64,000 nucleotides of DNA from Candidatus Omnitrophota bacterium (GCA_016206925.1 JACQQS010000052.1:208-64207), one strand, 5' to 3'; shown: positions 1-33,300, counted from the stretch's first letter. Notes: a model not told the origin generated them from the sequence alone. Program-made: numbers and translations.

Positions 1-41
1 CATTCTTCCGCGTAGCCGCTTTCAGCAATTGGCTTCTCGGT

Positions 42-4281: not shown

Positions 4282-4560
4282 ATGGAGGCTATTCTCGTCG
4301 CATTTTTTATATTCGTATTGTCCTGTTTCATCGGGTTTGAGGTTATCTCGAAAATTCCCCCCACGTTGCACACGCCGCTTATGTCAGGTTCCAACGCGAT
4401 TTCTGGAATTACTATTGCTGGGGCGCTTCTCTGCGCGGGGCCGAAAGACATGAACGCTACTGCGATCCTGGGATGGGCCGCCATCATTTTTGCAATGATT
4501 AACGTGGTAGGCGGTTATTGGGTAACCGATCGCATGATGAGGATGTTTAAGAAGAAATGA
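4282..4560 (+). CDS. pntAB: NAD(P) transhydrogenase alpha subunit part 2 (membrane)
   Basis: 92 aa with three TM helices. Motif HTPLMSGSNAISGI. SD GGAGGGA upstream. Confidence 0.85.
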   Translation: MEAILVAFFIFVLSCFIGFEVISKIPPTLHTPLMSGSNAISGITIAGALLCAGPKDMNATAILGWAAIIFAMINVVGGYWVTDRMMRMFKKK

Positions 4561-4566
4561 CATGGA

Positions 4567-4663
4567 CGTCATCCCCGCGTAAGTGGGGATCTATAAATAA
4601 TAAGAAGAATGGATTCCCGCTGGAGCCTGCCCCCGAATGTCTCTATCGGGGGCGGGAATGACG
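4567..4663 (+). repeat. nested-hairpin REP/MITE-like element, copy 1 (97 bp)
   Basis: Termini are CGTCATCCCCG and CGGGAATGACG (11-bp inverted repeat, 1 mismatch). Internal hairpins are ATCCCC..GGGGAT and ATTCCCGC..GCGGGAAT. It is collinear with copy 2 at 58902-58991. Confidence 0.7.
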
Positions 4664-10100: not shown

Positions 10101-11743
10101 AACTGCCGGGACACAAGGTGAGCCAGGAAATCGGCCGTGTGCGTTACACGACGCCCGGCGTTCAACTGATTTCCCCCGCGCCTCATCATGATATTTATTC
10201 CATTGAGGATTTGGCCCAGCTCATTTTTGATTTGAAAAACGGCAACGACCAGGCCAACATCAATGTGAAACTGGTAGCTGAAGTCGGCGTCGGCACCATT
10301 GCAGCCGGTGTGTCCAAAGGCCACGCGGAACTGGTGCTCATCAGCGGTGATACAGGCGGAACAGGGGCGTCACCGCAGACATCGATAAAACATGCGGGAC
10401 TTCCGTGGGAACTCGGCGTTGCCGAAACGCATCAGACACTTGTTTTAAACGATCTGCGCGGAAGAATAATCGTTCAGACGGATGGACAGATTAAGACCGG
10501 CCGCGATGTTGCCATGGCCGTGCTTCTCGGCGCAGAACAATGGGGTGTGGCCACCGGTTCGCTGATTGCTTCGGGTTGTATCATGATGCGCAAATGCCAT
10601 CTGAATACCTGTCCGGTCGGCGTTGCCACGCAGGATCCGGAGCTCAGAAAAAAGTTTTCGGGCAAACCCGATTACGTGGTTAATTTATTTTTCTTTATCG
10701 CTGAAGAACTTCGCGAAATCATGGCCAGGCTCGGTTTTCGCACCGTGAACGAAATGATCGGGCGCGTGGACAAGCTGGAAGTGAAAAAAGCGATCGATCA
10801 TTGGAAAGCCAAAGGACTTGATTTCAGCAAGATTTTGCATAAGCCCGATGTGCCGCCGCATATTGCCACGCACTGCGTCCAGAAGCAGGACCATGGCTTG
10901 TCGAAGGCGATCGACCACGAATTGGTTAAGGATTGCGCGAAGGCCATCGAGCGGAAGGAAAAGGTTCGTTTTGAACGTCCCATTCGAAACGCTAACCGCG
11001 CCGTGGGCGCCATTCTTTCAAGCCGGATTTCCCGCAAATATGGTTACGAAGGATTGCCGCAGGATACGATTCATATCAAATTCTCCGGCTCGGCGGGGCA
11101 GAGTTTTGGCTGCTGGCTTGCGCCGGGCATCACGCTTGAGCTGGAAGGCGATGCGAACGATTATTTGGGCAAAGGCCTCTCCGGCGGGAAACTCATCGCG
11201 TATCCGCCCAGGAATGCAAGTTATGTCCCCGAAGAAAATATCATCATCGGAAATGTTTGCTTCTATGGCGCCACGCGCGGCGAGGCTTACATACGGGGCA
11301 TGGCCGGCGAGCGGTTTTGTGTGCGTAATAGCGGCGTGCATGCCGTTGTCGAAGCGGTCGGCGATCATGGCTGCGAATACATGACGGGCGGATACGTTGT
11401 CGTGCTCGGGCCCACGGGACGGAATTTTGCGGCGGGCATGAGCGGTGGTATCGCGTACGTTCTTGATGAGAAAGGGAATTTCCCGAAGCTTTGCAATCAG
11501 GCCATGGTTGATCTGGAGAAGCCTGATGAAAAGGATATCGAGCGTATTGCCGGAATGATCGGGAAGCACATCGAATACACGCAAAGCAAGCTGGCTGCTG
11601 AAATTTTAAAACGCTGGGGCGATCTTGCGTCGAAATTTGTGAAAGTTTATCCGAAAGATTACAAGAGAGCGCTTACGGATCGCGCTAAGCAGGACGGTGA
11701 AGTTCAGCTGGCCAGCGCCGCCGTATTATCGAAAAGTGCATAA
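7163..11743 (+). CDS. gltB: glutamate synthase large subunit
   Basis: 1526 aa. Ntn-amidotransferase catalytic Cys context ([10 protein letters not shown]). FMN/Fe-S central domain (GEGGEDP..., [16 protein letters not shown]). GXGXG C-terminal domain. Confidence 0.95.
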
Positions 11744-13988: not shown

Positions 13989-14480
13989 ATGAAACGAATC
14001 TATTCACTAGAACCAATCATTGATTTACGTTCGAAAGTTCTAATACTTGGTTCTATGCCGAGTGGGCAGTCTCTACAGAAATCGGAATATTATGGAAATT
14101 CCAGAAACCAATTCTGGAAAATTATTTGTTCTATCTTTGACGAAGCATTCCCGAGTTGTTATGAAGATAAGGTTAAATTGTTGGCCAAAAATCGCGTAGC
14201 ATTGTGGGATGTATTAAAGGAATGTGACCGTATTAAGTCGAGTGATGCTACGATTGGAAACGGCGCTTTTAACGATATTCCCACATTACTTAATAAGTAT
14301 CCACAAGTTACTCGTATTGTATTAAATGGCAAAAAAGCCAAAGCTTGTTTCGAAAATATCTTTGGAGCGGTTATGAAAATTCCTTATGTTTATGTTCCTT
14401 CAAGCAGCTCAGCCAATGCGAGAATATCCTTACACGAAAAGATTTGCAAATGGAAAAGAGCTATCCGTTGGGTCTCTTAA
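13989..14480 (+). CDS. DNA-deoxyinosine (hypoxanthine) glycosylase, UDG superfamily family-6-like
   Basis: 163 aa. The motif VLILGSMPSGQSLQKSEYYGNSRNQFWKII matches the family signature as remembered. The gene is visibly AT-rich. Confidence 0.6.
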   Translation: MKRIYSLEPIIDLRSKVLILGSMPSGQSLQKSEYYGNSRNQFWKIICSIFDEAFPSCYEDKVKLLAKNRVALWDVLKECDRIKSSDATIGNGAFNDIPTLLNKYPQVTRIVLNGKKAKACFENIFGAVMKIPYVYVPSSSSANARISLHEKICKWKRAIRWVS

Positions 14481-14514
14481 ATGAGACCATTAACTGAGCG
14501 TGGCCCCAAAACCA

Positions 14515-14536
14515 ATTTCTGCCGGCCGGCAGAAAT
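14515..14536. repeat. perfect 22-nt palindrome ATTTCTGCCGGCCGGCAGAAAT downstream of the glycosylase gene (possible hairpin/terminator)
   Basis: Read directly. No U-tract follows, so a terminator role is uncertain. Confidence 0.35.
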
Positions 14537-14613
14537 TGCCTGAAGAAGGCCGTAAAACCTGTAAAAATTTCATGAAAAACGCCCATACCGGCGTTGCAAT
14601 CATAGTATTTTTA

Positions 14614-14629
14614 TACTACACTTGTAGTA
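14614..14629. promoter_or_regulatory. candidate operator: TACTACA-CT-TGTAGTA palindrome upstream of the wHTH-MNT gene
   Basis: Perfect 7-bp arms sit 5 nt upstream of the ATG. A third half-site, GACTACA, overlaps the start codon (14636-14642). The downstream protein has an N-terminal winged-helix domain. Confidence 0.4.
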
Positions 14630-14633
14630 CATT

Positions 14634-15224
14634 ATGACTACAATGCCGTTTTACCCCTTCCACTTGACCAAGTCTCCCCTTAGGAAAAGGCTCTTGGCAT
14701 ACTTTTTCACGAATCCCGAGGCGCGTCTTTACTTAAGAGAAATCGCCGTCCAGCTTGACGTGGACCCCACCAACCTATCCCGTGAATTAAGAAAGCTTGA
14801 GCAAGAAGGTGTGTTTGTTTCGGAGAGAAACGGCCTTCAAAAGTATTTCTCACTCAATAAAAATTATGCGCTCTACGAAGAACTTCGATCAATGGTATTT
14901 AAAACAGTAGGTGTTCAAGGCGCCCTTACACGTCTTTTGCGGGACATTCAAGGAATTCATCGCGCTTTTATTTATGGATCATTTGCGAAAAACAGTGAGC
15001 GGGCGGGATCGGATGTCGACCTTTGTCTTATTATCGATAAGAAATATTTTAGAGAAGACCACCTCCTTGAGAAACTGCATAAGCTTGAACAGAAACTCGG
15101 CCGCGAGATCAACTATTCATTTTTTTCGGTGCAAGAGTGGGAATCAAAAATACGTTCTAAAGATAGTTTTGTTCTGGGACTCATGAAGGGCAAACGTATC
15201 GAGCTTATCCATGAAAAAGATTGA
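14634..15224 (+). CDS. winged-helix plus minimal nucleotidyltransferase (MNT) protein, antitoxin-type partner of HEPN
   Basis: 196 aa. ArsR-like wHTH (LREIAVQLDVDPTNLSRELRKLEQEGV) and NTase motif IYGSFAKNSERAGSDVDLCLI. It overlaps the HEPN ORF by 14 nt. Confidence 0.75.
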   Translation: MTTMPFYPFHLTKSPLRKRLLAYFFTNPEARLYLREIAVQLDVDPTNLSRELRKLEQEGVFVSERNGLQKYFSLNKNYALYEELRSMVFKTVGVQGALTRLLRDIQGIHRAFIYGSFAKNSERAGSDVDLCLIIDKKYFREDHLLEKLHKLEQKLGREINYSFFSVQEWESKIRSKDSFVLGLMKGKRIELIHEKD

Positions 15225-15674
15225 TTTAAGCGACCTTATCCGTGAAGGGCAAATTCAAGAAGAGCCCAGCATCGGTTGGGATCAGGTAGAACAGCTGATC
15301 AGGCGGGCATTTGAAGATCTCAAATCAGCGGATAGAAATATGCCGTTTGACGAACCCGGAGCCATGGATTTCATTTACAAAGCGATGTTTCATGCAGCGA
15401 ACGCTTTGCTCCGCTCCTACGGATTTAGACCCGGCGCTACGCGACAACATCAGGGCGTGATTACCGCCGTCAGCGGATTTTAGGACCGGAGTACAAGGCT
15501 CTAATCCTTAAGTTTGACAAATTGCGCAAGCGACGAAATCAGTTCGAATATCAGGGAATTTTTGAAATGGGCCGGGAAGAATTACAGGATTCGATCGAAC
15601 AAGCCAAGAAGCTTGTCGTTGCCATTCGCTCAGCCCTTGAAAAATCCAATCCCCAGAAGCATTTTGACTGGTAG
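15211..15674 (+). pseudogene. HEPN-domain gene interrupted by a frameshift
   Basis: Frame 1 (15211-15483) ends ...YKAMFHAANALLRSYGFRPGATRQHQGVITAVSGF*. Frame 3 (open from 15429) continues RILGPEYKALILKFDKLRKRRNQFEYQG...HFDW* to 15674. Together they form one HEPN domain. Confidence 0.6.
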
Positions 15675-15733
15675 AAAAAACTAAATGGGTCAATCTCAGA
15701 ACAGGCAATAATTGCAAAGAAAAGGAGATGGCG

Positions 15734-15970
15734 TGTGACAAAGCCCTTAAATGAATTTGGCGGCTGGCTTCGCTTCTTTCAAATCCTGTGTTAATATTTG
15801 GTTTTCTCAGTAATACAACTCGTGCCTGGCTCCGGCATATGAGCTATTGGAGAGAAAGCGTTAACGCGATTAGGCATGCTGTTATCATCGGTGTGTGGAT
15901 TCCCTATTTCATGTGTTCTAAGCGAGTGAAGGCGTATTACGGAGCAAACGCGACCAAGCTTTCCTTGTAG
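15734..15970 (+). pseudogene. possible remnant of a DUF2569-type membrane protein gene (N- and C-terminal fragments only)
   Basis: GTG at 15734 (SD AAAGGAG) gives VTKPLNEFGGWLRFFQILC*. ORF 15788-15970 ends ...VIIGVWIPYFMCSKRVKAYYG. Both resemble the termini of that family, and the middle is missing. Confidence 0.3.
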
Positions 15971-16009
15971 AGTCGTTGAAATGTTTTTAGCAGATGTATC
16001 GAATGACGC

Positions 16010-16240
16010 TTAAAGTTGATTGAGGATATCGAGATATTCCTGGTTAGAAATGCCGAGCGTTCTTAAGTTGCTCTTTATTTCAAAGACAGGAAGATCTTTC
16101 TTCGCACGAACAATCACGGGACGAATGAGATCGTTCCTGTCCCACACCCGATGATCTCCATGCTGCCGAACTGGATGGCAGCCCACGTACTCCAGAAATT
16201 TCTCGAAGGTTTTGTAGTGAATCGGTCGAAGGCCAGCCAC
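16010..16240 (-). CDS. hicA: HicA-family (YcfA-like) toxin
   Basis: 76 aa. FEKFLEYVGCHPVRQHGDHRVWDR fits the HicA dsRBD-like fold motif. It starts 2 nt after the hicB stop. Confidence 0.75.
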   Translation of the reverse strand: MAGLRPIHYKTFEKFLEYVGCHPVRQHGDHRVWDRNDLIRPVIVRAKKDLPVFEIKSNLRTLGISNQEYLDILNQL

Positions 16241-16242
16241 GA

Positions 16243-16536
16243 TTAGGCAGGAGCAGGTATTTCTACAGATTTACTCTGTTGATTAATGATGCGGGGAGGA
16301 CTCCATTCATTTCGAACTTTTTGCCAGCCGTACTCTTGAAGAACCTTTCCCCACGTCTTCTTGCGGCTGACTTCCTCGATAAAAAGTTTTAAAGTGACAG
16401 CAAAGGATTTTTCTGCGTCTTCGAATGAATCGCCATGTGCTACAAGATCAAATGCAGGGGAATAGCAAATGAAGGCATCTCCCTCTTTCATATATATTAG
16501 AGGAATGTTAACTTTGACTTTTGAGTGGTTGCCCAT
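16243..16536 (-). CDS. hicB: HicB-family (UPF0150) antitoxin, N-terminal domain type
   Basis: 97 aa. IPLIYMKEGDAFICYSPAFDLVAHGDSFEDAEKSFAVTLKLFIEE. SD GGAGA upstream. Confidence 0.7.
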   Translation of the reverse strand: MGNHSKVKVNIPLIYMKEGDAFICYSPAFDLVAHGDSFEDAEKSFAVTLKLFIEEVSRKKTWGKVLQEYGWQKVRNEWSPPRIINQQSKSVEIPAPA

Positions 16537-16684
16537 ACTTTATTTCTCCATCGGGAACAAGTATATCACATTTCGAAAAGCCAGATCGCTAATTCTATTA
16601 TTTTAAGTGGTTACGCGACTGGAGTTACCGCCTCATGATTTCGGCGTTGTGTTGATTTTGCCGAGATCGAGTCTTCTTTCAAAG

Positions 16685-18601
16685 CTAAGCAGTTGCTTTT
16701 CTAAGGCGGAGGTGGCCGAGTTCGATGCCGCGCTCGGTGCCTAAGTCGCGGAAATGCCAGGAAAGTTTGGCTTCCTTCTTCTGATCGGCGTCATGAATGG
16801 CGGGCGTAGCGGCAATTTGAAGCAGATTTTCCGGCACGATGCCGAATGCGGCCCAGGACAGGGCGGCTTCGATGCGGTAACCGCCGGCGGTTAGTTTCAT
16901 GGCAAGCTTTGTGGTTTCATTCAACTCAATTTCCTTCTCTTCGCCCCAGTTGTAGAGCCGCGGGCGTTTTGTCTTGGGATCAAAGCTGAACCCGAATTGC
17001 GGGTCGCGCGGCGATTTCCAGCGGAACCCGTCACCGTCAAGATCCATGAAAAGCTCAAGCAAATCATCTTTGTAGCTGTAGCGGACCGTCCGCTTGGCCA
17101 CGATTTGATCGTCATGAACGGCAGCCGCAATAAAAAGATGGGTTTCGTCCCATAGAAACGAAACATTGGCGCTCAGGTCATCCCGGTCTCGAACCACGCC
17201 GTAGTCAATGTGTTTAGCATCCGCCAGCATAATTTGTTCGGTGATTCCCCATTCGTTCAGGTCTCCGTCGACAGAAATGGCCTGCTCACCCCGGTGCGTA
17301 ACCGTGTATTCCGGCGCTTTTGAAAGGGCGGGCTCCATTGTGCCTTCGACAAATCCGGCAAGCGCCAGGCCGCGTTTTACGTTTTCATTTTGCATGAAAA
17401 GTCTCCAGATCAGCCCGGTGCGGTAATTTTCAATCATGGAAAGAAGCGCGCCGGCATCGATGCCGATAACCGATTTGGAGCGCCAGTCGCGGTCGAGATT
17501 CATGGAATCACTGAATCCGTAGCGGCCCCACATTTTATCCTTCAAATTCGAATAGACCTTTCGCATCTGCGCGATCGAAAGCTCCGGCTCGAAAACGATT
17601 GATGCTCCCGAAACCAGGGGCGAAATCGTCCCATCGTGCGAATTCCTGTCGCTTGCGCCGTAGGCCTTGTATCCGGCCGGGCCGTCGTAGGCACTCAGGC
17701 CCCAATATCCTTCGGCATACGTTTTAAATTCAGCGGCGTTGTTTTCGGAAAATTTCTTATTGGCCCGTGTGGCACGCCTTGAATTTTCAAAATAATCGGC
17801 AACGCCGTCATTTTTATTCCGCAAGTCCAGCCAGACCTGCGGATATTGATGGATGAATAGCGGACCGGCAAACATGAAAGTTTCGCCTTCCCGCTCCGCA
17901 ACCGGTTTCTTGACCTTGCTCCAGCTGTCATTCGGCACGGGATACGTTGGCGAACCGGTCGCCAGAATATATAGGAGGAGGCCCTCGGCAAATCCGGACC
18001 AGTAGGAAGGCAGAAATCCGCTTTCCTTCTGCCAGCCCATGCAGAGATAAGTCGTGCGGTTCCGCATCCAGTTAAAATCAACGCGCTCGTAGATGGATTT
18101 TGCAATTTCCGCAGCTTTCGTTCCGGGGAAATATTCGGCGGCTGTAAGCATCCCCGCCAGGAGCAGGGCCGTATCGATTGAAGAAAGTTCGGACTCGTAC
18201 ACATTTTTACCTTCGCGGCCTTCGAGAAAATGATAGAAGAAACCGTGCTGAGTCTCCGCGCGTTCGGAGAAAAATCGCAGCGCCGTAAGAATCCGCTCAT
18301 AGGCTTCTTTATTGCTGATCCAGCCCCGCTCGGAACCGATGATGAACGCGTTTATGCCGAATCCGGTGGCGGCAATGCTCGTTCGCAATTCGCGGAGCGG
18401 CTGGCCGTGATTGGCCGAGCTGTCATTGATCAAGCCTGTTTCGGGATGGTACTCGTTTAAAAAATAGCGGAACGTCTGCTTCTCGACCATATCCAGAAAT
18501 GCATCCGAATTTTCGGTTGCTTTAGGATCTTCTCCTGCGGCGAATACCGGTGAATTCAGGAGAAGGGAAGCGATTAGAATGCTAAGGGTTATCGTTCTCA
18601 T
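16685..18601 (-). CDS. secreted PF10091/COG5368 'putative glucoamylase' (GH144-like) glycosidase with a C-terminal CBM9-like domain
   Basis: 638 aa with a signal peptide (MRTITLSILIASLLLNSPVFAAG). Catalytic-domain motifs are shared with the 30390-34133 paralog: SIAATGF, GFFYHFL, ELSSIDTALLLAG, IENYRTGLIW. The C-terminus (ISVDGDLNEW...LWDETHLFIAAAVHDD) is CBM9-like. Confidence 0.7.
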   Translation of the reverse strand: MRTITLSILIASLLLNSPVFAAGEDPKATENSDAFLDMVEKQTFRYFLNEYHPETGLINDSSANHGQPLRELRTSIAATGFGINAFIIGSERGWISNKEAYERILTALRFFSERAETQHGFFYHFLEGREGKNVYESELSSIDTALLLAGMLTAAEYFPGTKAAEIAKSIYERVDFNWMRNRTTYLCMGWQKESGFLPSYWSGFAEGLLLYILATGSPTYPVPNDSWSKVKKPVAEREGETFMFAGPLFIHQYPQVWLDLRNKNDGVADYFENSRRATRANKKFSENNAAEFKTYAEGYWGLSAYDGPAGYKAYGASDRNSHDGTISPLVSGASIVFEPELSIAQMRKVYSNLKDKMWGRYGFSDSMNLDRDWRSKSVIGIDAGALLSMIENYRTGLIWRLFMQNENVKRGLALAGFVEGTMEPALSKAPEYTVTHRGEQAISVDGDLNEWGITEQIMLADAKHIDYGVVRDRDDLSANVSFLWDETHLFIAAAVHDDQIVAKRTVRYSYKDDLLELFMDLDGDGFRWKSPRDPQFGFSFDPKTKRPRLYNWGEEKEIELNETTKLAMKLTAGGYRIEAALSWAAFGIVPENLLQIAATPAIHDADQKKEAKLSWHFRDLGTERGIELGHLRLRKATA

Positions 18602-18784
18602 ACCGCTTGATTAAGCGCTGGTCGGGCGCCGCTTGTTCGAGCGGCGGTCGGCCGCTTAGTCCGGCGGTACCGAACGGTCGGTTCGGCGCTTGGTCAGGCG
18701 GTACCGTGCGATCGGCACGGTAATGCTCTTAAAGTATGCCATAGGGTGTTAATACGTCCAATGGGGGTGGGTGAGTTGTCATTA

Positions 18785-18860
18785 TTGACAAGGATCGATA
18801 AAGAGTGTTGCTCTGTGCGCATGCTTGAGCAAATCCGCGTGAAAAATTTCGCGCTTGTCG
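18785..18860 (+). repeat. duplicated recN promoter plus first 14 codons (fragment)
   Basis: 18821-18849 is identical (29/29 nt) to the recN start at 21289-21317. The upstream TTGACAA and CTCTGT boxes are collinear with 21254-21288. The following codons differ synonymously (NFAL). Confidence 0.8.
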
Positions 18861-18861
18861 T

Positions 18862-21153
18862 CTATTTCGTCTCCAAAGGTTTTGCCACCAGAATTACTTT
18901 GCTAAAAATCTTATCGCGGCCTTCCACACGCACATCATCGACAGCGGCTTCCACGTTCGAATCGGGCAGGGCATCCCGGACGCGTATTCGAATCTGCATT
19001 TGCGCGGAAAAGACGAACGAACGGGACTGTTTGGCGACAAGTTCGACGCGCTCAAACGCGCCGGTCCCCAGCGCTTCTATGTTGGTTGTGGTGATCGTAT
19101 CTAAGATCAAAAAACTGCTTCCACCGTTATTGCTGAGCGAAACTTCAAACGAATCTTCGTTGCCGGTGCTGTCCGTGATAAAGCGGCGGTAGAAAAGAAT
19201 GTTCAACGACCGCCAACGGCGGGCATCAAATACAGGAGAATAAAGCGACGTAAATCCGCCATCCAAATCCTGAATCGACGGTCCGCTTGGAGCGCTGACT
19301 GTGCGGTTTCCGGTTACATAAGCCATATGACCATCGAGGAGAGAATGGTCAAATTCCGGGGCAAACGCGCGGAAGCGTAAACTTCCCAGCGTGTCCTGAA
19401 ACGTTCCCGCCGGGTCGGCGCGCTCCCAGCGCCCGTCGGTGGCCGTGTCCGAATCTTGAAGCCGGTCGATGGTCCATCCTTTGTCGGATTCGAAATTATC
19501 TTCGAAAAGAACCTGCCAGCGTAATTCCCGCGTGTTTGCCGCGAGGGGTCGTGGAAAAAGTTCGACATTCAAATCGCTGGGTCCGTTGCCGACGTGAACC
19601 AGTATTGTTTGTTCCACATAATTGGGAGCTCGAAATGTAACGGTATAGTCTCCGGGAACAGCCGTGATGTGAAAATAGCCGAAACGAGGATTGCTTACGC
19701 GAACCTCTCCGCTGGGGTGGGTTATTTCATCGATGATAATCTCCGCAACAACCGGCTTTCCTGACCCCGCCTCCCGCACATGGCCCGATATGGCCGGTCC
19801 GTTCATGCGCTGTAGTAAATATGCCCACCCCGGGCGTTGGCCGAAGACAATAGGATTACGCCAAGTATTGTAATTGGGCTGAAATCCCAGACCGGAGCGT
19901 GTAGTTTCTACCACAAAAGCAATGGTCCCTTGTGAAAAGTATTGCCAGTCACGATCTACGCCGTCCACCGGATAAAGCGCTGGGCTTGAACCATATCCTG
20001 CTGTGCCGTTATCTCGAATAATATGTGAAGCAAATTCGCGCGCAATCACGCGGCTCATGCTTTGATCAGGAACGGCGGGTTGGATTAACACATTTTGAGG
20101 AGAAGCGAAAGAATTGCTGCTAAGGGCATACAACACCACCTCGCCTGTGGAGTGGTAGGATACGCTAAAGACAAACCTTTCCTTTTCGGCCAAGCGCATG
20201 ATGGCCAGCGCCTCCGGCTCAGACCCCGATGACGGCCCGCGATAGGTGGATGAACTTCGTGTTCCCGACGAACCGTTGGCCCAACCACCCCAGTAAAAAG
20301 GATAGTTTCTGTTGAGGTCGACGCCGTCTGAGAAGTTGATCTGACCATTGCCGTCGTTGTCTCGCACATTCTTACGCCAGTTAAGATCTATACCAAACAC
20401 GCGTTCGTTGCCGTCGGGGTTTACAACCGGCACACACCAGATCTCGTATCGATTTATCCAGTCGGTTAGTTCGGCATCGATGTTGTATTGGGTGGTTAGG
20501 CGCAGAATGATGTCCAGCACAATTTCCGGTGTGATGATTTCCCGCGCGTGATGCTGGCCGTTAAATAAAATGGCCGGCTCATCTTCTTCAAGTCCGGCGT
20601 TATCAGAAATCTTGAGCGCCCAAATTGTTCTCCCTTGATGCGACGAGCCGATGGGTACCAAAGCCGTGATGTTGGGAAAAGTTTCGGCAAACTGCCTGAG
20701 CAAAGCTTCGATTTGCGTCGAGGTGTGATACCCGTCATCTATGATGGGAACCGTAAGCGCGTCACTTGCTGCGTATGATCCGGTTACGCCTGATGAATCG
20801 ATTAAACTGATCTGGGCGCCCTGTTCAGCGAGGGAGCCGGAAATTGTTTTGCGGACCGACAGCGCCTTACGTTGGCGTTGGAGTGCCCGGTATTCTTCTG
20901 ACGTAGCCAGCAACCGGATTTCCCTCGGGCGGACATCAAAACTTTCCGTGTCTAAGCCGGTGCGTGCAAGGTCATGAAGCGTGCCTTGAGTTTCCTGGTT
21001 GCTTGCCACGGAAATACTCAGCTCGTAATACACATCGGGCGGGGAAGAAGTTTCGCCGCGCACGTCGGCCGCAAGAAAAAACATAACCGCGCCCGCCAGC
21101 GTCACCACCGCCAAAATAAAGCGGGAGGCGATTAGGAATCGATGTCTCATCAC
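18862..21153 (-). CDS. M14-family zinc carboxypeptidase with carboxypeptidase-regulatory-like and MAM/LamG-like C-terminal domains
   Basis: 763 aa with an N-terminal signal/anchor. Zinc motif NGQHHAREIITPE and the motif VVNPDGNERVF. The ISGHVREAGSGKPV region is a beta-sandwich. Confidence 0.85.
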   Translation of the reverse strand: MMRHRFLIASRFILAVVTLAGAVMFFLAADVRGETSSPPDVYYELSISVASNQETQGTLHDLARTGLDTESFDVRPREIRLLATSEEYRALQRQRKALSVRKTISGSLAEQGAQISLIDSSGVTGSYAASDALTVPIIDDGYHTSTQIEALLRQFAETFPNITALVPIGSSHQGRTIWALKISDNAGLEEDEPAILFNGQHHAREIITPEIVLDIILRLTTQYNIDAELTDWINRYEIWCVPVVNPDGNERVFGIDLNWRKNVRDNDGNGQINFSDGVDLNRNYPFYWGGWANGSSGTRSSSTYRGPSSGSEPEALAIMRLAEKERFVFSVSYHSTGEVVLYALSSNSFASPQNVLIQPAVPDQSMSRVIAREFASHIIRDNGTAGYGSSPALYPVDGVDRDWQYFSQGTIAFVVETTRSGLGFQPNYNTWRNPIVFGQRPGWAYLLQRMNGPAISGHVREAGSGKPVVAEIIIDEITHPSGEVRVSNPRFGYFHITAVPGDYTVTFRAPNYVEQTILVHVGNGPSDLNVELFPRPLAANTRELRWQVLFEDNFESDKGWTIDRLQDSDTATDGRWERADPAGTFQDTLGSLRFRAFAPEFDHSLLDGHMAYVTGNRTVSAPSGPSIQDLDGGFTSLYSPVFDARRWRSLNILFYRRFITDSTGNEDSFEVSLSNNGGSSFLILDTITTTNIEALGTGAFERVELVAKQSRSFVFSAQMQIRIRVRDALPDSNVEAAVDDVRVEGRDKIFSKVILVAKPLETK

Positions 21154-21288
21154 AAAAGTATGTCATATACTTCCGTGTTTTGCCAATGTTAATAACCTGC
21201 TGTAATTAAAGAAGCCTTGATTCCTGCGAAAATTTCCTGTTTTGCCGATCTCGTTGACAAAGACCAGCAAGCCGATTACTCTGTCAAC

Positions 21289-22713
21289 ATGCTTGAGCAA
21301 ATCCGCGTGAAAAATTTTGCCCTGATCGATGACCTCACCCTCGAATTTCATCCGCGTCTGAACGTCTTTACCGGTGAAACAGGGGCGGGCAAAACCATTT
21401 TAATTGACGCGCTTTCAGCCGTACTCGGCGAAAGGTTGGATCTTGTTTCGCTTCGCTTGAAAGAAGAAGGTTGTCTCACCGAAGCTGTATTTAATGTCGT
21501 AAAGACAACGAGGACCAGGGGTAACGTGTTCGGCGCGTGGTTCGGCGAAGATGCCGGAAAGAGGCGCGAACTTGAAGAACTCCGAAGTCTTGAAGCCGGC
21601 CGCGAGCGAGAAATAGATCTTTTGAAATTTCAAATCGGTGAAATCAGCAGAGTAAATCCAAAGCCCGATGAAGACGCAAAATTAAAGGAAGAACATATCC
21701 GCCTTGCCAATGCGGAGAAACTTTACGAGAAGGCCGCGCATGTAGTCGACAGGCTATCGGAAGGGGAGGGCTCGGCGATCGAGCAGATTGGCCAGTGCTC
21801 GAAATTTCTCTCCGAACTTGCCGCCATCGATTCTTCATTAAAGCCGCTCACGCAGGAAATCGAATCGGTTGAAAGCGGTTTGGATGAAATCGCGCGTTCC
21901 GTGCGCGATTATCAGGACTCCATTTCCTTCGATGCCGACCGGTTAAAAGCGGTTGAAGAGAGGATAGATGCCCTTGCCACAGTAAAGCGTAAGTACGGCG
22001 GAAGTCTCGAGGCCGCTCTTACTTTTTTGACGGAGTCCAAAAAACGATTGTCCCTCCTTGAAAATTCCGAAGTGAGAGGTAAGGAACTTGAGAAATCGCT
22101 CGCCGAACTTGAAACGAAGGTAAGGCGAGCAGGTAAAAAGCTTTCCGAAGAACGTTCCGAGGCTGCCGCTAAGCTAAAGAGTTTGATCGAAAGAGAATTG
22201 AAAGATTTGGGTATTGCTCACGCGCGATTTGAATGCCGCGTGGAAAAATCCGAACCGGCCGAAACCGGTTGTGAGCGCGTTGAATTTTACATCAGCCCCA
22301 ATTTGGGCGAGGAGATGCTTCCGCTTGCCAAAATTATTTCCGGAGGCGAGGCGTCGCGTGTGATGCTCGCACTCAAGCGTGCTTTGATTGATTCCGATGA
22401 AATTCCGACGATGATTTTCGACGAAATTGATACCAATATCGGCGGGCGGCTAGGCTCGGTCGTCGGCGAAAAACTGGCTGAAATTGCCAAGAAGCATCAA
22501 GTACTGCTTGTGACGCATCTACCTCAAATTGCTTCCTTTGCGGATCAGCACATCAAGGTTTCTAAGTCCGTTGAAGGAAAGCGTACAAAGACACATTACG
22601 CCGTGATCGATAGTGAAGCACGCGTGCGCGAACTGGCCGAGATGATGGCCGGTGAGAAAAAATCTGAAGTTGCAACCAAACATGCGCGCGAAATGCTCGC
22701 CGCACAACGATGA
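21289..22713 (+). CDS. recN: DNA repair protein RecN, unusually short (474 aa)
   Basis: MLEQIRVKNFALIDDLTLEF, Walker A GETGAGKTI, signature ISGGEASRVMLALK, Walker B MIFDEIDTNIGG, H-loop VTHLPQIA. The start is taken at the conserved MLxxLxIxNFA, not at track position 21217. Confidence 0.8.
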   Translation: MLEQIRVKNFALIDDLTLEFHPRLNVFTGETGAGKTILIDALSAVLGERLDLVSLRLKEEGCLTEAVFNVVKTTRTRGNVFGAWFGEDAGKRRELEELRSLEAGREREIDLLKFQIGEISRVNPKPDEDAKLKEEHIRLANAEKLYEKAAHVVDRLSEGEGSAIEQIGQCSKFLSELAAIDSSLKPLTQEIESVESGLDEIARSVRDYQDSISFDADRLKAVEERIDALATVKRKYGGSLEAALTFLTESKKRLSLLENSEVRGKELEKSLAELETKVRRAGKKLSEERSEAAAKLKSLIERELKDLGIAHARFECRVEKSEPAETGCERVEFYISPNLGEEMLPLAKIISGGEASRVMLALKRALIDSDEIPTMIFDEIDTNIGGRLGSVVGEKLAEIAKKHQVLLVTHLPQIASFADQHIKVSKSVEGKRTKTHYAVIDSEARVRELAEMMAGEKKSEVATKHAREMLAAQR

Positions 22714-22728
22714 GATAGGCAAAACCGT

Positions 22729-23004
22729 ATGATTTCACCCGATGAAGTTCAGAAAATGCTTGAGGATGCTTTTCCCGATGCCGAGATTACCGTTTCGGAC
22801 ATGACCGGCTCAATGGATCATTTCGACATCGAAGTTGTATCGCCAGCTTTTGCGGGGCTTACGCTCATTAAACAGCACCGACTGGTCCAGCAGCCGCTTC
22901 AAGCCGCGCTCGCCGACGGCCGCATCCACGCCATCGCCATCAAAACCTGCACTCCGGAGCAACGGAAGAAAGCGCAGGGCGGCGGCGGACTGAACGTGCT
23001 CTAG
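22729..23004 (+). CDS. bolA: BolA-family protein
   Basis: 91 aa. DMTGSMDHFDIEVVSPAFAGLTLIKQHRLV is typical of BolA. Confidence 0.8.
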   Translation: MISPDEVQKMLEDAFPDAEITVSDMTGSMDHFDIEVVSPAFAGLTLIKQHRLVQQPLQAALADGRIHAIAIKTCTPEQRKKAQGGGGLNVL

Positions 23005-24173
23005 CCTTTCACACACAATACTTGTTTCAATTTCGCTTTAACGCACACCAAGTCTTCCTGATCCTTCATGACTTGGTCGATGTTTTTGTAGGCGCCCGGA
23101 ATTTCATCGAGGACGCCGCGGTCCTTGCGGCATTCCACGTCTTTGGTCTGTTCCCGAAGGTCATTTTCCGTAAATTTCTTCTTGGCTGCATGCCGGCTCA
23201 TGCGCCGTCCTGCGCCGTGTGAACAGCTCATGAAACTCTCGGGGTTTCCGAGCCCTTCCACAATGTATGAGGCGGTGCCCATCGAACCGGGAATAATGCC
23301 GAGCTGTCCCTGCCGCGCGCTTACAGCGCCTTTGCGTGTGACGTAGACCTTTTCTCCGAAGTGTTCCTCATGCGCAACGTAATTATGGTGGCAATTCACA
23401 CGCATGAGAATAGGAAACGGTTTTCCTTCGTTTAATTCGCGTGCGAGTACTTGAATAATGCGCTCCACCATAATTTCGCGGTTTTCCAGAGCGTAATGCT
23501 GGCACCATTCGACATCGCGGAGATACGATTTAAATTCCGGATCTTTGGTGGTGAAATAAGCGAGATCCCGATCGGGAATTTTAAATTCCTGCCTCGCCAT
23601 AATTCGTTTGGCTTCATGAATGTGAACGTCGGCGATACTTTTCCCGATGTGGCGCGAACCCGAATGAAGCAAAATCCATACATTATTCTCCGTGTCGAGG
23701 CAGATTTCGATGAAATGGTTCCCACCGCCAAGCGAGCCGAGCTGTTCCATCGCTCTTTTCTTTAAATCACTTACTTTGCCGGTAAGCTCATGAAATAATT
23801 TCCAGCCTTCCCAGCTCTGGGCACGGCCTTCGATATGCCTGTTCCCTTCAAATCCAACAGGAATGTCGCGCTCGATGCGTTGGCGGATTTTGCCTAATTT
23901 TCCTTCTAGATCACTCGCGTGAAAATGTGTTTTAACGGCGCACATGCCGCAGCCGATATCCACGCCGACAGCGGCCGGCATAACGGCGGTCTTGGAAGGA
24001 ATCACCGCACCGATCGTTGCGCCAAGCCCCCAGTGCACGTCCGGCATGACGGCAACGTGCTTATAAATGAAGGGCAGCGAAGCCAGATTCTCGAGCTGGC
24101 GTATTGCCTCCGCTTCAATGTCTTTGGTCCAGACTTTCACCGGAACTTTGTTTTCCAAAACCGTTTGAATCAT
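23001..24173 (-). CDS. rtcB: RNA ligase RtcB
   Basis: 390 aa. Motifs PDVHWG, VGVDIGCGM, GGGNHFIEI, HSGSRHIG, NCHHNY and SCSHGAGR. Confidence 0.92.
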   Translation of the reverse strand: MIQTVLENKVPVKVWTKDIEAEAIRQLENLASLPFIYKHVAVMPDVHWGLGATIGAVIPSKTAVMPAAVGVDIGCGMCAVKTHFHASDLEGKLGKIRQRIERDIPVGFEGNRHIEGRAQSWEGWKLFHELTGKVSDLKKRAMEQLGSLGGGNHFIEICLDTENNVWILLHSGSRHIGKSIADVHIHEAKRIMARQEFKIPDRDLAYFTTKDPEFKSYLRDVEWCQHYALENREIMVERIIQVLARELNEGKPFPILMRVNCHHNYVAHEEHFGEKVYVTRKGAVSARQGQLGIIPGSMGTASYIVEGLGNPESFMSCSHGAGRRMSRHAAKKKFTENDLREQTKDVECRKDRGVLDEIPGAYKNIDQVMKDQEDLVCVKAKLKQVLCVKG

Positions 24174-30389: not shown

Positions 30390-33300
30390 ATGGATAAAAA
30401 AACGCGCACTCAAAAAAGTCCGAGGCTACTCAAAGCAGTCGTTTTCCTTCTGCTTACCCTGGGCACCTTCTCTACGCCGCAGTCCCACGCGGCTGATATT
30501 CTGATTGATGATTTCGACGACGGTACAAGATCACCGAATTCGTTGGACGGTTTTACAGGATCGTTTATCAACGAAGACCAGGTTACCCACGAACGATTTG
30601 CGTTTTGTGCTGACCAGCTTAGCGAGGGCGGGATGGCGCTTGAGTTTTCACGCGACGCACGTCCTGAATCTTTTTGCGGTTTTTTCAGTCAGATGGGGCC
30701 TGGGGCGTCTATTGATTTAACAACTGCCGGTGTCAATCAACTGTCATTCAAAGTTCGCGGTGATTTGATAGACGGGGCGCCGGGCGGCGGGCACAACTTT
30801 CAAATTGAGATTAAAGATAGCTCCGGCAAACGGCTTATGACGGCGCTTGCCAATGCGCCGGGATTTGAAGCCGGAACGGTTCAGGGCGAGCTTCGCCAGG
30901 TAGACATTCCTTTTTCGGCAATGAGGCCGGACGGCGGCCCGATCGATTTGTCGTCCGTTAAGGAAGTTGCTATTGCTTTTAACAGAGAGTTTACCGCACC
31001 CAATGCACCAGTCGTAACAAGTAAAATTCTCATAGATGATCTAAAGTTCACTCGCCGGGAAGATCCTCCCCCCAGCATTCTTGAATCCGACCCGGCAAGT
31101 CTGGATATCGATCTCATCGCACGCGCATCTGTTATTGCCTCAGGCCCTTCAAACGCTCAGATAATGACCGTGGCCGAAGATCCCGGTTCGCTTCGCGGCA
31201 CTGCGCTTAAGCTTTATCACGACCTAACCGACAGCGGTGATTTTTTCGCCTTTTTTGTTTTTCCTTCGGAAAGCCCCGTCGACCTTGCTGGTGAAGGAAT
31301 TCGGACGGTGAAAATTCGCATGCGAAAAACCGGATTTGACAGCGCTCCCTTGAGAGTCGTTCTTGAGCTCAAGAAAAAGGGTGAGGACGGTCGACTGTCC
31401 GAGGTTGTTGGCACGGTGCTGAGCTACGGGGTCGGACAGGGTTCGGAAGGAACGGAGTATGCGGAGACCATTTTCCCCATTTATTCGGAGTCTCCTGTGA
31501 TCGATGGAGTGGTGCTTGTGTATTCCGACGGCGGTGACGGCGCTCTTTTGGTGGATAAGCTTACTCTTTCAACGGACCCTTATATTCCTAATAGTCCGCC
31601 CTATTTGCCCAGCGCGGGCCCGGCGCGAAGCGATGAAGAGCTTCTGGATTACATTGAGTCGCAGTCCGCGCGTTATTTTGTGGATCAATTGGTCGGCAGC
31701 AGTTTTCATGTCCGCGATCGTTCTGCTCCGGACAGCGCTTCTTCCATTGCTGCAACCGCATTCGCATTGAGCACGTTTACCGTGATGAGCAGAAGATACG
31801 ATCCCACGCCGGGAAGTCTTTGGGACATTGTGGACCGGAACGGCATCACGATTACACCGGCCGAATCCGCGTCGAGAGTAAAAACTTTGCTTGATCAATT
31901 TCTTGCCATTCAGGCCGCACAGCCCGACGTGAATACGGGGGAAGGCGATCCCGATCGTTTGTACGGCATTGCGGGATTCTTTTACCACTTCTTAAACGAA
32001 GACGGAACAAGGGCACGCGATTCCGAGGTTTCCGTCATCGACACGGCGATCTTGCTCACCGCGGCCATTCAGGCTGGAGAATATTTCGGCGGGGAAATCC
32101 GCGAGAAGGCCGAGCGGCTGCTTTCAAACGTGAATTGGAACTACATGTTTTATGAACCGGAGAAAGCATTTCGCCTCTCGTGGCTGCCTCTGGTCAAACG
32201 CGGATTCAGCATTCCGGATCCGGGCGGAATCGGATTCTTAAGCGACGGAACCGTCGGACGGCCGACGGATGAGCTTTTGCTCGTGAATATTCTGGCGCTT
32301 GCAAGCGACCCGTTGAATGTAGCGTTCCAGCAGGCGCTTTACAGCTATCCCCGTGTCGAGCGTATTTACCGTTCGCGGAACAACGGGAATTTCCCGGTCG
32401 TAAACTCATTTTTCGGCTCTGCGTTTACGTATCTCTACGCGCATTTATATTTTGATTTTGATTTGCTCGGGCCGGACAGGCCCGGCCTGATTACGGCCGA
32501 TTTGGAATTTCCCGATTCCGTGGACTGGTGGATTAACTCTGTCAATGCCTTTCGGGCAAACCGGCAGTTTGCCATCGACCGGTCGGAGCATTTTCCATTT
32601 TCGTTCCATGAGAATAGCTGGGGGATTTCTGCGGTGGAGCGGCCGGACGGAAAATATGAGGGACTTTACGGCGGTTCTCCGGCGGAAAACGGTCCGACGC
32701 ACGACGGGACCGTAGCCGTTCATATTCCTTTTAGCGCGCTTACGTTTTTTAAAGAAAGTTCGTCCGAGTTGCTCGGCGAAAACGAGGCATTTCAAGCTAT
32801 GCGCTTTGCCTACGACCATTTCTATGATGATTTGTTCGGCCCCTATGGGCCGGTGGATTCTTACAATGACCGCGCAGAATTTTCTGATTTTTATCTCGGA
32901 CTGGATCAAGGCCCCATCGTACTTTCGATAGAAAATTACCGCTCTGGATTGATTCTGAACACGTTTATGAGAAATACGCAAATTCAGGCGGCTTGCGCGA
33001 TTGCTTTCGGCCATGCGCCTGTGATCAATCCCGTTGCCGATCAAACAGTGGAAGCCGGGAACCATTTGTCATTCAATTTAACGGCGACCGACGCTGATGG
33101 CGACGGCGGATTGGAAATTCTCTCAAGCAATTTGCCGGACGGAGCTTCGCTCGTGAATGACGGGACAGGAATGGCCGCATTTAACTGGACGCCGGAAATT
33201 TCCGATGTTGGAAACCATGTTGTCGGCTTTACCGTGCGCGATGCATACCGGGATAATCCGGAACCGGTATTTGTTTCAATAAAAGTAGAGACACCGCCTG

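Follow-up and report, generated by a model that had tools for sequence, protein, structure and literature searches.

Transposons and insertion sequences are recognized by a transposase gene, terminal inverted repeats and a target-site duplication of 2–15 bp. In insertion-duplication of the Campbell type, a circular DNA integrates by one homologous crossover, an example being mutagenesis with non-replicating plasmids. Integration of e14 and phage 21 takes place in icd of E. coli, and both carry a substitute gene end. There are also elements that rebuild the 5′ end of their target gene, i.e., SXT in prfC, and IMEVchUSA3 and other dusA-specific elements (PMC8409611). These gene-5′-end elements have an identical core with diverged homologous arms, bring a new promoter and new N-terminal codons, and leave the native start as an orphan (PMC8409611). 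A further route is homology-facilitated illegitimate recombination (PMC3240628), which has been credited for the orphan gene arrays of Vibrio T6SS and Rhs (PMC5361080).

The locus described here lies in a 64,000-nt stretch of DNA (the window) from a metagenome-assembled genome (MAG) of a Candidatus Omnitrophota bacterium. Its present order is: a glycoamylase-family gene, read leftward; copy 1 of a duplicated unit, ending in an orphan recN start (recN′); a peptidase gene, also read leftward; copy 2 of the unit; and recN, read rightward. The explanation we favour, with a probability of about 0.75, is that this is a real scar of insertion with duplication and that the promoters are at present divided among the three genes. 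In the lineage leading to this MAG, a 3′-truncated M14 carboxypeptidase gene would have been placed between the divergent glycoamylase and recN genes, and the same event would have duplicated a divergent unit of about 130 nt, made up of the glycoamylase promoter (leftward), the recN promoter (rightward) and the first 13 codons of recN. Such a scar would be real but fairly ordinary: a new example of a known phenomenon.

Related loci and the empty site

The glycoamylase-family gene (16685–18601, minus strand; 638 amino acids; PF10091 and CBM9) is the conserved left neighbour of recN. Two related lineages, A and B, have the same flanking genes, and the peptidase gene is absent from both. In lineage A, which is represented by three samples (L001, L008 and L009), the distance from the glycoamylase start to the recN ATG is about 90 nt, the glycoamylase orthologues adjoining recN have 74–77% amino acid identity, and the segment that is duplicated in the window is present as a single copy. 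The flanking synteny is kept: gltB and gltD on one side, bolA and rtcB on the other. The preliminary description had asked whether recN lies directly beside the glycosidase gene where the peptidase is absent, which is the case in all three samples of lineage A; its suggestion of an insertion or rearrangement scar at the 5′ end of recN is supported by this empty site and by the synteny.

Extent and identity of the duplicated unit

Within the 64 kb, ATGCTTGAGCAAATCCGCGTGAAAAATTT is found at 18821–18849 and 21289–21317 and at no other site with three or fewer mismatches; 100 dinucleotide-preserving shuffles contained no match, and the chance expectation is 0. The 29/29 identity first noted between 18821–18849 and the recN start at 21289–21317 is thus correct, and the real block is 30 nt, extending 1 nt further in the 5′ direction (C): 18820–18849 is the same as 21288–21317 on the plus strand (30/30). 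A repeat search gave a 53-nt pair (18808–18860 and 21276–21328; 85% identity, spacing 2468 nt).

The duplication is larger than was first noted, as it takes in all of the divergent intergenic unit, from the glycoamylase promoter through the recN promoter to recN codons 1–13. Exact matches to AAAGTATGNCAT occur in the window at 18731 and 21155 only, and there is a single match in each related locus. Copy 1 extends over 18731–18860 and copy 2 over 21155–21328. The insert unique to the interval between them (18861–21154, 2.29 kb) is essentially the bare peptidase reading frame. That the peptidase gene is the sole unique content between the copies had been recognized; the “100-bp upstream region” that had been assigned to it is part of the duplication, since 21155–21187 aligns with the ancestral glycoamylase promoter of lineage A (L001), with a score reached by 0 of 1000 shuffles.

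Outside the 30-nt block, the copies have about 61–64% identity (22/36 upstream and 7/11 downstream, compared with 29/29 in the core); the 22/36 counted agrees with the earlier estimate of about 60% for the upstream part. Several details of the preliminary description hold: TTGACAA is collinear in both copies (at 18785, 36 nt 5′ of the ATG, and at 21254, 35 nt 5′ of the ATG), CTCTGT lies 10 nt 5′ of either ATG, the codons following the block are TTC GCG CTT GTC in copy 1 and TTT GCC CTG ATC in copy 2, and the similarity ends at the peptidase stop (minus-strand stop codon 18862–18864). The last common base is G18860, where the homology of the orphan (MLEQIRVKNFALV; 18821–18860, plus strand) to the recN genes of copy 2 and of lineages A and B stops; the orphan therefore has 13 codons and 1 nt of recN rather than the “14 codons” first reported.

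In the comparison of copy 1 with copy 2, a permutation of the longest run of identity gave p = 4.9e-4. The 29 nt of the core are 69–83% identical between lineages (20/29 for lineage A versus lineage B), so that generic conservation of recN starts does not explain the 30-nt block. An identical core between arms of about 61–64% identity is not what one simple recent duplication would leave; it implies that diverged copies recombined, and the block may be seen as a recombination tract: either a crossover site or a conversion tract. From its downstream edge to the end of the duplication there are 11 nt.

Promoters of the two copies

By its sequence context, copy 1 occupies the ancestral position: it adjoins the conserved AATGCT..TAAAGTATGCCAT, which abuts the glycoamylase gene in lineage A, and AAAGTATGCCAT is kept adjoining the glycoamylase gene in the window and in lineages A and B. 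Its leftward half can be read as the putative ancestral glycoamylase promoter (18731–18761, minus strand), with TTGGAC (18761–18756), a 17-nt spacer and TGG-CATACT (18741–18733), and would continue to serve the glycoamylase gene.

The leftward half of copy 2 (21154–21186, minus strand) is a duplicate glycoamylase promoter abutting the peptidase start, for which a promoter scan gave TTGGCA, 18 nt and TGA-CATACT. The −10 ends 6 nt 5′ of the peptidase ATG, so a leaderless mRNA is predicted. The rightward half (21254–21288, plus strand) is the predicted active recN promoter (TTGACA-17 nt-TACTCT-6 nt-ATG); a Shine-Dalgarno sequence is absent before this ATG, and a leaderless mRNA is again predicted. 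The recN homologues uniformly begin with MLxxIR, and copy 2 supplies TTGACA-17-TACTCT-ATG and codons 1–13 in frame with recN. Copy 2 appears to drive both the peptidase gene and recN, both leaderless, promoter activity and leaderless starts being read from hexamers only; it could be regarded as a bidirectional leaderless promoter module, with its glycoamylase-type side serving the peptidase gene and its recN side serving recN. With copy 1 still serving the glycoamylase gene, the duplication would have handed the incoming gene a ready-made promoter, and neither neighbour would have been silenced.

The rightward half of copy 1 is the orphan recN promoter (18785–18820, plus strand; TTGACA-18 nt-TGCTCT-6 nt-ATG). 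The five functional recN promoters compared (copy 2, lineages A and B, L010 and L012) are all of the form TTGACA-17-TAnnnT-5..7-ATG, and it is copy 1 only that departs from this: its spacer is 1 nt longer (18 versus 17) and the −11 A, present in all five, is missing. The orphan promoter is probably crippled, and the loss of the −11 A together with the 18-nt spacer may be what disabled it. It retains every block that is invariant among the functional recN promoters, bar the “TA” of the −10. The earlier proposal that the orphan was once part of a functional recN is supported mainly by these conserved promoter blocks; the synonymous pattern on which it had been based is weak by itself, as three of the four codon differences after the block are at third positions (p ~0.11 by our own binomial estimate).

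The peptidase gene and its left junction

The M14 zinc carboxypeptidase gene (18862–21150, minus strand) encodes 762 amino acids from the ATG at 21150, with an in-frame GTG at 21153. Pfam identifies PF00246 and a CarboxypepD_reg-like domain. The N-terminal signal-like region is intact and the C-terminal domain is absent: in alignment, the last 75–115 amino acids found in the six closest homologues are missing. Junction J1 (18860–18861), 1 nt past the peptidase stop codon, joins truncated recN′ (codon 13 and 1 nt) to the 3′-truncated peptidase gene. Since the C-terminal domain seen in the homologues is missing from the frame, both recN′ and the peptidase gene are cut short at the left junction; J1 is an illegitimate junction.

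The peptidase is without a close relative: the closest homologue overall has 49% identity, and the closest in GTDB species genomes 41% (an Acidobacteriota MAG). The peptidase relatives listed from species genomes belong to other phyla, with no member of the Omnitrophota among them. Among 80 GTDB loci where peptidase relatives occur, there is not one with recN, glycoamylase, bolA or rtcB at a distance of 5 kb or less, and neither of the two closest homologues adjoins recN. With a GC3 of 0.56 and rank 14 of 28 for RSCU distance, the gene does not depart from the window in GC, GC3 or codon usage, so the comparison of GC content suggested at the outset does not make it stand out; this native-like composition implies that the event is old, or that the donor was of similar composition.

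Origin of the duplication

As the origin of the scar we favour, at somewhat below even odds, a single reciprocal (Campbell-type) crossover with a diverged allele. On a small circular DNA, perhaps excised from a related genome in which the cassette was already present, the peptidase fragment would have been accompanied by a diverged allele of the intergenic-recN′ segment; the circle would have integrated via one reciprocal crossover within 30 nt identical in donor and recipient. Copy 1 should then consist of resident arm, core and donor arm, and copy 2 of donor arm, core and resident recN, a mosaic which matches that observed (arms of 61% and 64% identity around the 30/30 core). As in described Campbell-type insertions, direct repeats of the segment common to donor and target flank the insert, the segment is single-copy at the empty site, and the target gene is intact on one side with a truncated copy on the other. 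In those insertions, the crossover makes reciprocal hybrids of the two copies; the mosaic seen here (22/36, 29/29, 7/11) would be compatible with such hybrids, the assignment of its arms to a donor and a resident allele being putative. The locus differs in the shortness and strong divergence of the homology (about 130 nt, identical over just 30 nt), and in that the circle is hypothetical; moreover, a complete bidirectional promoter has been duplicated, leaving all three genes with a promoter kept or gained. The minimal efficient processing segment of RecA-dependent exchange sets a lower limit that an identity of 30 nt just reaches. The 80 GTDB loci and the two closest peptidase homologues offered no donor arrangement, and the listed relatives, lying outside the Omnitrophota, fit poorly with a close donor that has a homologous intergenic region.

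The alternative that survives best, although we consider it rather unlikely, requires no related donor, which is consistent with none having been found and with the listed relatives being from other phyla. A foreign peptidase fragment would have been captured in situ, by replication template switching or by repair of a staggered break, with a target duplication of about 130 nt. The copies, identical at first, would have diverged, the recN promoter of copy 1 being free, or even selected, to decay, while a shrinking core was converted in short tracts from the constrained recN start. The native-like codon usage suggests the long residence that this implies, and the identical block stops, at its downstream edge, 11 nt short of where the duplication ends, a place that conversion tracts would rarely reach. 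However, arm divergence of about 39% implies a long time, yet an unconstrained orphan of 30 nt stayed perfect (p ~5e-4), and conversion would have to act on homology merely 30 nt long. Target duplications of about 130 nt are unusual, and copy 1, which keeps TTGACAA and CTGT, is more like a diverged working allele than a product of neutral decay.

Homology-facilitated illegitimate recombination would resemble the present case in having a homologous anchor on one side and an illegitimate join on the other, and in leaving displaced resident fragments as orphans. The simple one-ended model, however, predicts a purely resident copy 1, for which divergence in the 11 nt after the core is unexpected, and leaves an identical core with both sides diverged unexplained. 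The orphans of the Vibrio T6SS and Rhs arrays are 3′ gene parts or immunity genes, whereas here the orphan is a promoter and a 5′ end.

It is improbable that the direction of change was the reverse, i.e., that the cassette and both repeats were ancestral to the three lineages compared (window, A and B) and were lost in the ancestor of A and B by recombination between the direct repeats. Precise loss is easy with direct repeats, the strong arm divergence and native codon usage indicate an old event, and, as the window lineage is the outgroup to A and B, gain and loss differ by one event. Nevertheless, loss requires two events and gain one, and more distant recN relatives have no common synteny and give no support to an ancestral cassette. 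The polarity indicated by lineages A and B is supported by this comparison of three lineages, in which later loss would cost just one more event; even with the reverse polarity, the structure is still an insertion-duplication scar.

Slightly less credible still is a remnant of a site-specific integrative element at the 5′ end of recN, in which the 30-nt block would be the att core and copy 2 the element-borne promoter and N-terminus, with only the peptidase gene left of the cargo after later deletions that also took the integrase. The layout does fit the attL/attR anatomy of gene-5′-end elements (PMC8409611), including the identical core and diverged arms: as with SXT and the dusA elements, the target gains a new promoter and N-terminal codons and the native start is orphaned at the other junction. 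Unlike those elements, which have an integrase, a directionality factor and transfer genes, the “element” here is one truncated 2.3 kb cargo gene, and its replacement arm includes a copy of the promoter of a neighbouring gene. The 2.29 kb between the copies holds the peptidase open reading frame only; no tyrosine or serine recombinase was found between the repeats or in the neighbouring open reading frames tested (13989–24173), and the latter include no integrase, recombination directionality factor or mobility gene. In addition, copy 2 has a homologue of the host glycoamylase promoter exactly at the peptidase start, and so looks less like a dedicated attP arm than like intergenic DNA of the host. 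The e14 and phage 21 insertions are likewise bracketed by a short duplicated gene end, its differences being mostly synonymous; theirs is a 3′ end with a full prophage and integrase, whereas here it is a 5′ end with a promoter, and mobility genes are absent. A transposon or insertion sequence was also considered and rejected: there is no transposase, no inverted repeat joins the insert ends 18861 and 21154, and the duplication is about 130 nt.

A related idea, to which we give equally little credence, is that the peptidase gene and its bidirectional promoter copy are a minimal integrase-free cassette, mobile among related Omnitrophota. It would exit as a circle by recombination between the flanking repeats and re-enter by a crossover in the 30-nt core at a recN start, the exchange being performed by host RecA or by a recombinase in trans. 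It would bring its own leaderless promoters each time, so that neither neighbour is silenced. If true, a captured promoter region would be all that defines this mobile unit, which is the size of a gene.

The orphan recN start

From the orphan ATG, a frame of 123 codons is open on the plus strand (18821–19192), antisense to the 3′ end of the peptidase gene. The third codon positions of this frame coincide with those of the peptidase gene, for which reason it is judged to be a shadow open reading frame and not a gene; it has no Pfam match. In the insertion-with-duplication explanation, the 13 orphan codons and the 123-codon frame would be non-functional relics. It is very improbable that the orphan was kept for a function, such as a damage-responsive promoter for an antisense RNA to the peptidase gene, the start of a 123-amino-acid protein, or a shared operator that would account for the perfect block. 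That 30 nt are perfect in an orphan diverged elsewhere does need explaining, the −35 TTGACA is intact and the ATG is followed by the open frame; against this, the −10 is without the A that is invariant in the five functional promoters, the frame is in the antisense register of a typical shadow frame, there is no Rfam match at E up to 1, and inspection of the 30-nt block gave no convincing palindrome or operator.

Agreement between assemblies

Over 18628–22121, the window is matched at 100% identity by a Logan assembly of run SRR12113385 (L005, 3513 nt), so that the fragment, with both copies and both junctions, is present in a second assembly, as had been called for, although the same reads may underlie both. 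An assembly artefact (a chimeric contig or a repeat-induced misjoin of strains) is the least probable explanation of all, even for a MAG that may share its reads with the Logan contig, as a second assembler gave the same sequence, J1 lies 11 nt past the exact repeat and not at its edge, the copies differ at many positions on either side of the block, and all three genes are intact open reading frames with sensible promoters.

The recN gene

The recN gene (21289–22713, plus strand; 474 amino acids; Pfam SMC_N), which begins with 40 nt belonging to the second copy of the duplicated segment, has an in-frame deletion of 79 codons at about 21551. The head domain is incomplete, as the 79 missing residues include HGQHDHQ and are conserved in 5/5 aligned relatives. 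In the recN of lineage A, the stretch that is deleted in the window aligns with part of the head of D. radiodurans RecN (PDB 4AD8). The gene in the window retains Walker A (GETGAGKT), SGGE and MIFDEID.

The duplicated unit

The window is part of a 64.4-kb contig from a metagenome-assembled genome (MAG) of Candidatus Omnitrophica, and its RecN and peptidase are 100% matches to NCBI MAG proteins (peptidase locus tag HY587_05530). According to Pfam, the locus comprises a glycoamylase-family gene (PF10091 and CBM9; 16685-18601, minus strand), the gene for an M14 carboxypeptidase with a CarboxypepD_reg-like domain (18862-21150, minus strand), recN (21289-22713, plus strand), bolA (22729-23004, plus strand) and rtcB (23001-24173, minus strand). 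The last two genes are convergent and overlap by 4 nt (23001-23004), the mark of a compact genome, and 31590-33005 holds a distant paralogue of the glycoamylase gene (29% identity).

The 29-mer ATGCTTGAGCAAATCCGCGTGAAAAATTT is present at the start of recN (21289-21317) and again at 18821-18849, there is no third site in the window when up to three mismatches are allowed, and shuffled sequence contains no match. The duplicated recN start reported in the preliminary description is thereby confirmed. Once the preceding C is counted, the identical block (the core) is 30 nt long (18820-18849 = 21288-21317); a repeat search returned a 53-nt pair with 85% identity and a spacing of 2468 nt, and TTGACAA and CTCTGT are collinear 5′ of both ATGs.

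The repeat is larger than the recN start and its promoter. The sequence TAAAGTATGCCAT lies beside the glycoamylase gene in the window and in two groups of relatives, lineages A and B, and on the minus strand it would read as an extended -10 element, TGG-CATACT, with a -35-like TTGGAC or TTGGAA 17 nt upstream. The same motif, as AAAGTATGTCAT, directly adjoins the peptidase start, at 21155. This 12-mer occurs exactly at only two sites in 64 kb and once in each related locus; the 33 columns from 21155 align to the lineage A glycoamylase promoter with a score reached by none of 1000 shuffles; and, independently, a consensus promoter scan identified TTGGCA-18-CATACT, with TG before the -10, at 21186..21157. 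Thus, the repeated unit covers the whole divergent promoter region: 18731-18860 in copy 1, beside the glycoamylase gene, and 21155-21328 in copy 2, which runs into recN. The greater length of copy 2 is due to additional internal sequence, including an imperfect direct 17-nt repeat pair (21171-21187 and 21233-21249; TTCCGTGTTTTGCCAAT / TTTCCTGTTTTGCCGAT, 62 nt apart). The first unit of this pair overlaps the -35 of the peptidase promoter; the pair may have arisen by internal duplication, or may represent a binding site present twice.

Between the copies, the unique DNA (18861-21154) consists of the peptidase frame with just 1-4 flanking bases on each side. Similarity of the copies stops at G18860, one base short of the minus-strand stop codon of the peptidase gene (18862-18864), so that the orphan recN fragment of copy 1 ends after codon 13 plus one base. 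The peptidase has an intact N-terminus; it is without the C-terminal 75-115 residues common to its six closest homologues, only 16 residues remaining from the conserved VEAAxDDV motif to the stop. The left junction (18860|18861) therefore truncates both the recN fragment and the peptidase gene. A 123-codon frame opening at the orphan ATG (18821-19192) is antisense to the peptidase gene, in the register that superimposes the third codon positions of the two; a Pfam search of this frame gave no match, and it is treated as a shadow ORF.

In the Logan assembly of run SRR12113385, 18628-22121 is reproduced with 100% identity; this interval spans both copies, both junctions and a deletion in recN. 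Given this identity, and a novel junction that lies away from the edge of the exact repeat, the misassembly that the preliminary description had considered is unlikely.

Related loci and the empty site

Two close relatives of the window RecN are present in public collections, with 81% and 78% identity, the next being at 57%. Lineage A (L001 and the essentially identical L008 and L009 from other samples) has the order gltB-gltD-...-glycoamylase(-) | recN(+)-bolA-...-rtcB, lacks the peptidase gene and has about 90 nt from the glycoamylase start to the recN ATG. The preliminary description had asked whether recN adjoins the glycosidase gene where the peptidase is absent, and had read the repeat as an insertion scar at the recN 5′ end; the empty site in lineage A answers the former and supports the latter, which the larger repeated unit extends. 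In lineage B (L002, L006, L007), a 188-aa MORN-repeat gene (L002 9420-9986, corresponding to L007 about 4537-5103) lies between the glycoamylase and recN promoters; alignment revealed no significant duplication around it, and it looks like a plain insertion with its own promoter.

Codon-based distances place lineages A and B as sisters, with the window lineage as outgroup (dS 0.5-1.2 for A versus B; about 1.3-2, near saturation, for the window versus A). In the simplest history, the glycoamylase gene and recN were ancestrally adjacent and the window lineage later gained the peptidase gene; had the cassette been ancestral and disappeared before lineages A and B split, one more event would be needed. 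The next recN relatives (56-57% identity) have no synteny at the locus and so provide no outgroup polarity. Scanning genome contigs with a recN-start pattern found nothing, a metagenome pattern scan recovered only lineages A and B again, and just six parsimony-informative sites (our own count) were available for dating or polarising the two copies via these lineages, too few to be informative.

Promoters and predicted leaderless starts

Five functional recN starts were compared: copy 2, lineage A, lineage B and two further recN loci (L010 and L012). All five have TTGACA-17 nt-TAnnnT-5 to 7 nt-ATG without a Shine-Dalgarno sequence, an arrangement from which we infer a leaderless recN mRNA. In copy 1 the recN-ward promoter is TTGACA-18 nt-TGCTCT-6 nt-ATG, having lost the -11 A and gained one base in the spacer. 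As the sole deviant among the six recN promoters, it is probably dead. On the other side, the leftward -10 of copy 2 ends 6 nt ahead of the peptidase ATG, and the peptidase mRNA is therefore predicted to be leaderless and driven by a copy of the neighbouring glycoamylase promoter. By inspection, no convincing LexA-type palindrome was seen in the promoter or core, and an Rfam scan of 18400-21500 (E up to 1), including the orphan and a hairpin-rich stretch, gave no match.

Origin of the mosaic copies

Copy 1 and copy 2 agree at 22 of 36 positions (61%) in the recN promoter, at 29/29 of the first coding bases and at 7 of the next 11 (64%). Beyond the block, the copies resemble each other no more than each resembles lineage A (62-73%). 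General conservation does not account for the block, which has 24/29 matches between the window and lineage A and just 20/29 between A and B; when the match pattern is permuted, a run of 30 has p = 4.9e-4. One recent duplication should leave the copies uniformly near-identical, and an old one should leave them uniformly decayed. Neither is the pattern, so recombination between diverged copies is needed.

The favoured route, with a probability of about 0.45, is a Campbell-type crossover with a diverged allele, in which one reciprocal exchange would account for all three segments: copy 1 would be composed of resident arm, core and donor arm, and copy 2 of donor arm, core and resident recN. No donor arrangement was found among the two closest peptidase homologues, which are in unrelated contexts, or among 80 GTDB loci with peptidase relatives, none of which has recN, glycoamylase, bolA or rtcB within 5 kb; and the peptidase relatives listed from species-representative genomes belong to other phyla, the best being from an Acidobacteriota MAG (41%). 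Both results favour a less likely route, namely duplication in situ, then decay, with short-tract conversion preserving the core. Had a one-ended, homology-facilitated illegitimate event taken place with its exchange in the core, the sequence 3′ of the core should be the same in both copies, which is not seen. Tandem duplication plus deletion needs a second peptidase copy, of which there is none in the window, and an ORF swap in a duplicated glycoamylase gene is rejected, there being no tblastn hit between peptidase and glycoamylase. A site-specific integrative element at the recN 5′ end fails on the integrase evidence, as the peptidase ORF is alone between the copies and the neighbouring ORFs examined (13989-24173) include no recombinase, and neither transposase nor terminal inverted repeats were found at the insert.

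Compositional foreignness of the peptidase gene was also rejected: its GC (0.53), GC3 (0.56) and codon usage (rank 14 of 28 ORFs) are ordinary for the contig, although its RSCU distance is still the largest among seven ORFs of 630-790 aa. Taken with the divergence of the arms, this ordinary composition suggests an old insertion or a donor of similar composition.

The locus behaves as an insertion-duplication does, and as integrative elements do when they insert at the 5′ end of a gene and rebuild it; it also resembles the arrays of orphan fragments ascribed to homology-facilitated illegitimate recombination (PMC3240628; PMC5361080). The scar is of an already known kind, its distinctive aspect being that a complete, apparently leaderless, bidirectional promoter module has been duplicated and divided among three genes. 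It does not reveal a new kind of system and implies no function beyond gene gain. It is a clean natural example of one foreign gene placed between two divergent genes of a compact genome with neither broken: the newcomer received a copy of its neighbour's promoter, positioned for a predicted leaderless start, recN is predicted to have retained a working promoter and N-terminus, and the redundant recN promoter was probably disabled afterwards. A perfect 30-nt core flanked by diverged arms can serve as a signature with which to look for short-homology recombination among uncultured lineages. For annotation, the duplication explains the orphan start codon, the 123-codon shadow ORF and the peptidase stop that abuts a recN fragment.

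Other changes in the neighbourhood

The sister lineages gained genes independently in the same neighbourhood: the MORN-repeat gene in lineage B and, between bolA and rtcB of lineage A (L001 12020-14060), an ORF of 517 aa whose TSP_3 and DUF2807 hits are weak. The glycoamylase-recN-rtcB region has the appearance of a local hotspot at which single genes are inserted. At 13989-16536, an accessory block of low GC (0.38-0.46) encodes a UDG-superfamily protein, an HTH-nucleotidyltransferase with a HEPN-like partner, and a HicA toxin with a probable partner; at that position it is missing from both lineages, lineage A having a SIR2_2-domain gene and lineage B a 222-aa ORF in its place.

A 120-nt GC-rich stretch at 18602-18721, with several hairpins and repeat units of 26 and 34 nt, is inserted precisely at the point where, in lineage A, the glycoamylase start codon abuts TAATGCT.... 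ViennaRNA gives -81 kcal/mol for the plus strand (18602-18745) and -58.5 kcal/mol for the minus strand (18596-18745). Its first 28 nt match L001 12364-12391 at 89%, between genomes whose neutral sites are saturated; the matched segment is in a different intergenic region, upstream of the lineage-A-specific 517-aa ORF. The stretch could belong to a small mobile or regulatory repeat family. Within recN, GTTCGGCGCGTGGTTCGGCG (21528-21547) matches the hairpin unit at 18681-18700 at 17/20 positions, with 0 expected in shuffles. Since this part of recN codes for the conserved AWFGED segment, it is probably native, and its similarity to the hairpin unit is probably a coincidence of GC-rich repeats.

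Compared with lineage B and all other aligned relatives, the window recN has an in-frame deletion of 237 nt (79 codons) at 21545-21556 (codons about 86-89), which is also present in the Logan contig. The residues lost, DDESLILRRE...HGQHDHQ...YVEY, belong to a conserved part of the head region at the N-terminus, and a RecN without these 79 residues may be non-functional. In intact recN the deletion endpoints share CGAAGATG / CGAATATG, which suggests a microhomology-mediated deletion. Relaxed selection on recN was rejected, as dN/dS is 0.08 for the window versus lineage A, no higher than the 0.10 for A versus B. RecN of lineage A carries a separate insertion, of about 24 residues (VIHRPSVGAPFMAPARSTGAVNRAP...; L001 about 10207-10300, residues about 70-105), in a variable loop just upstream of the window's deletion site, and this part of recN is unstable in the group.
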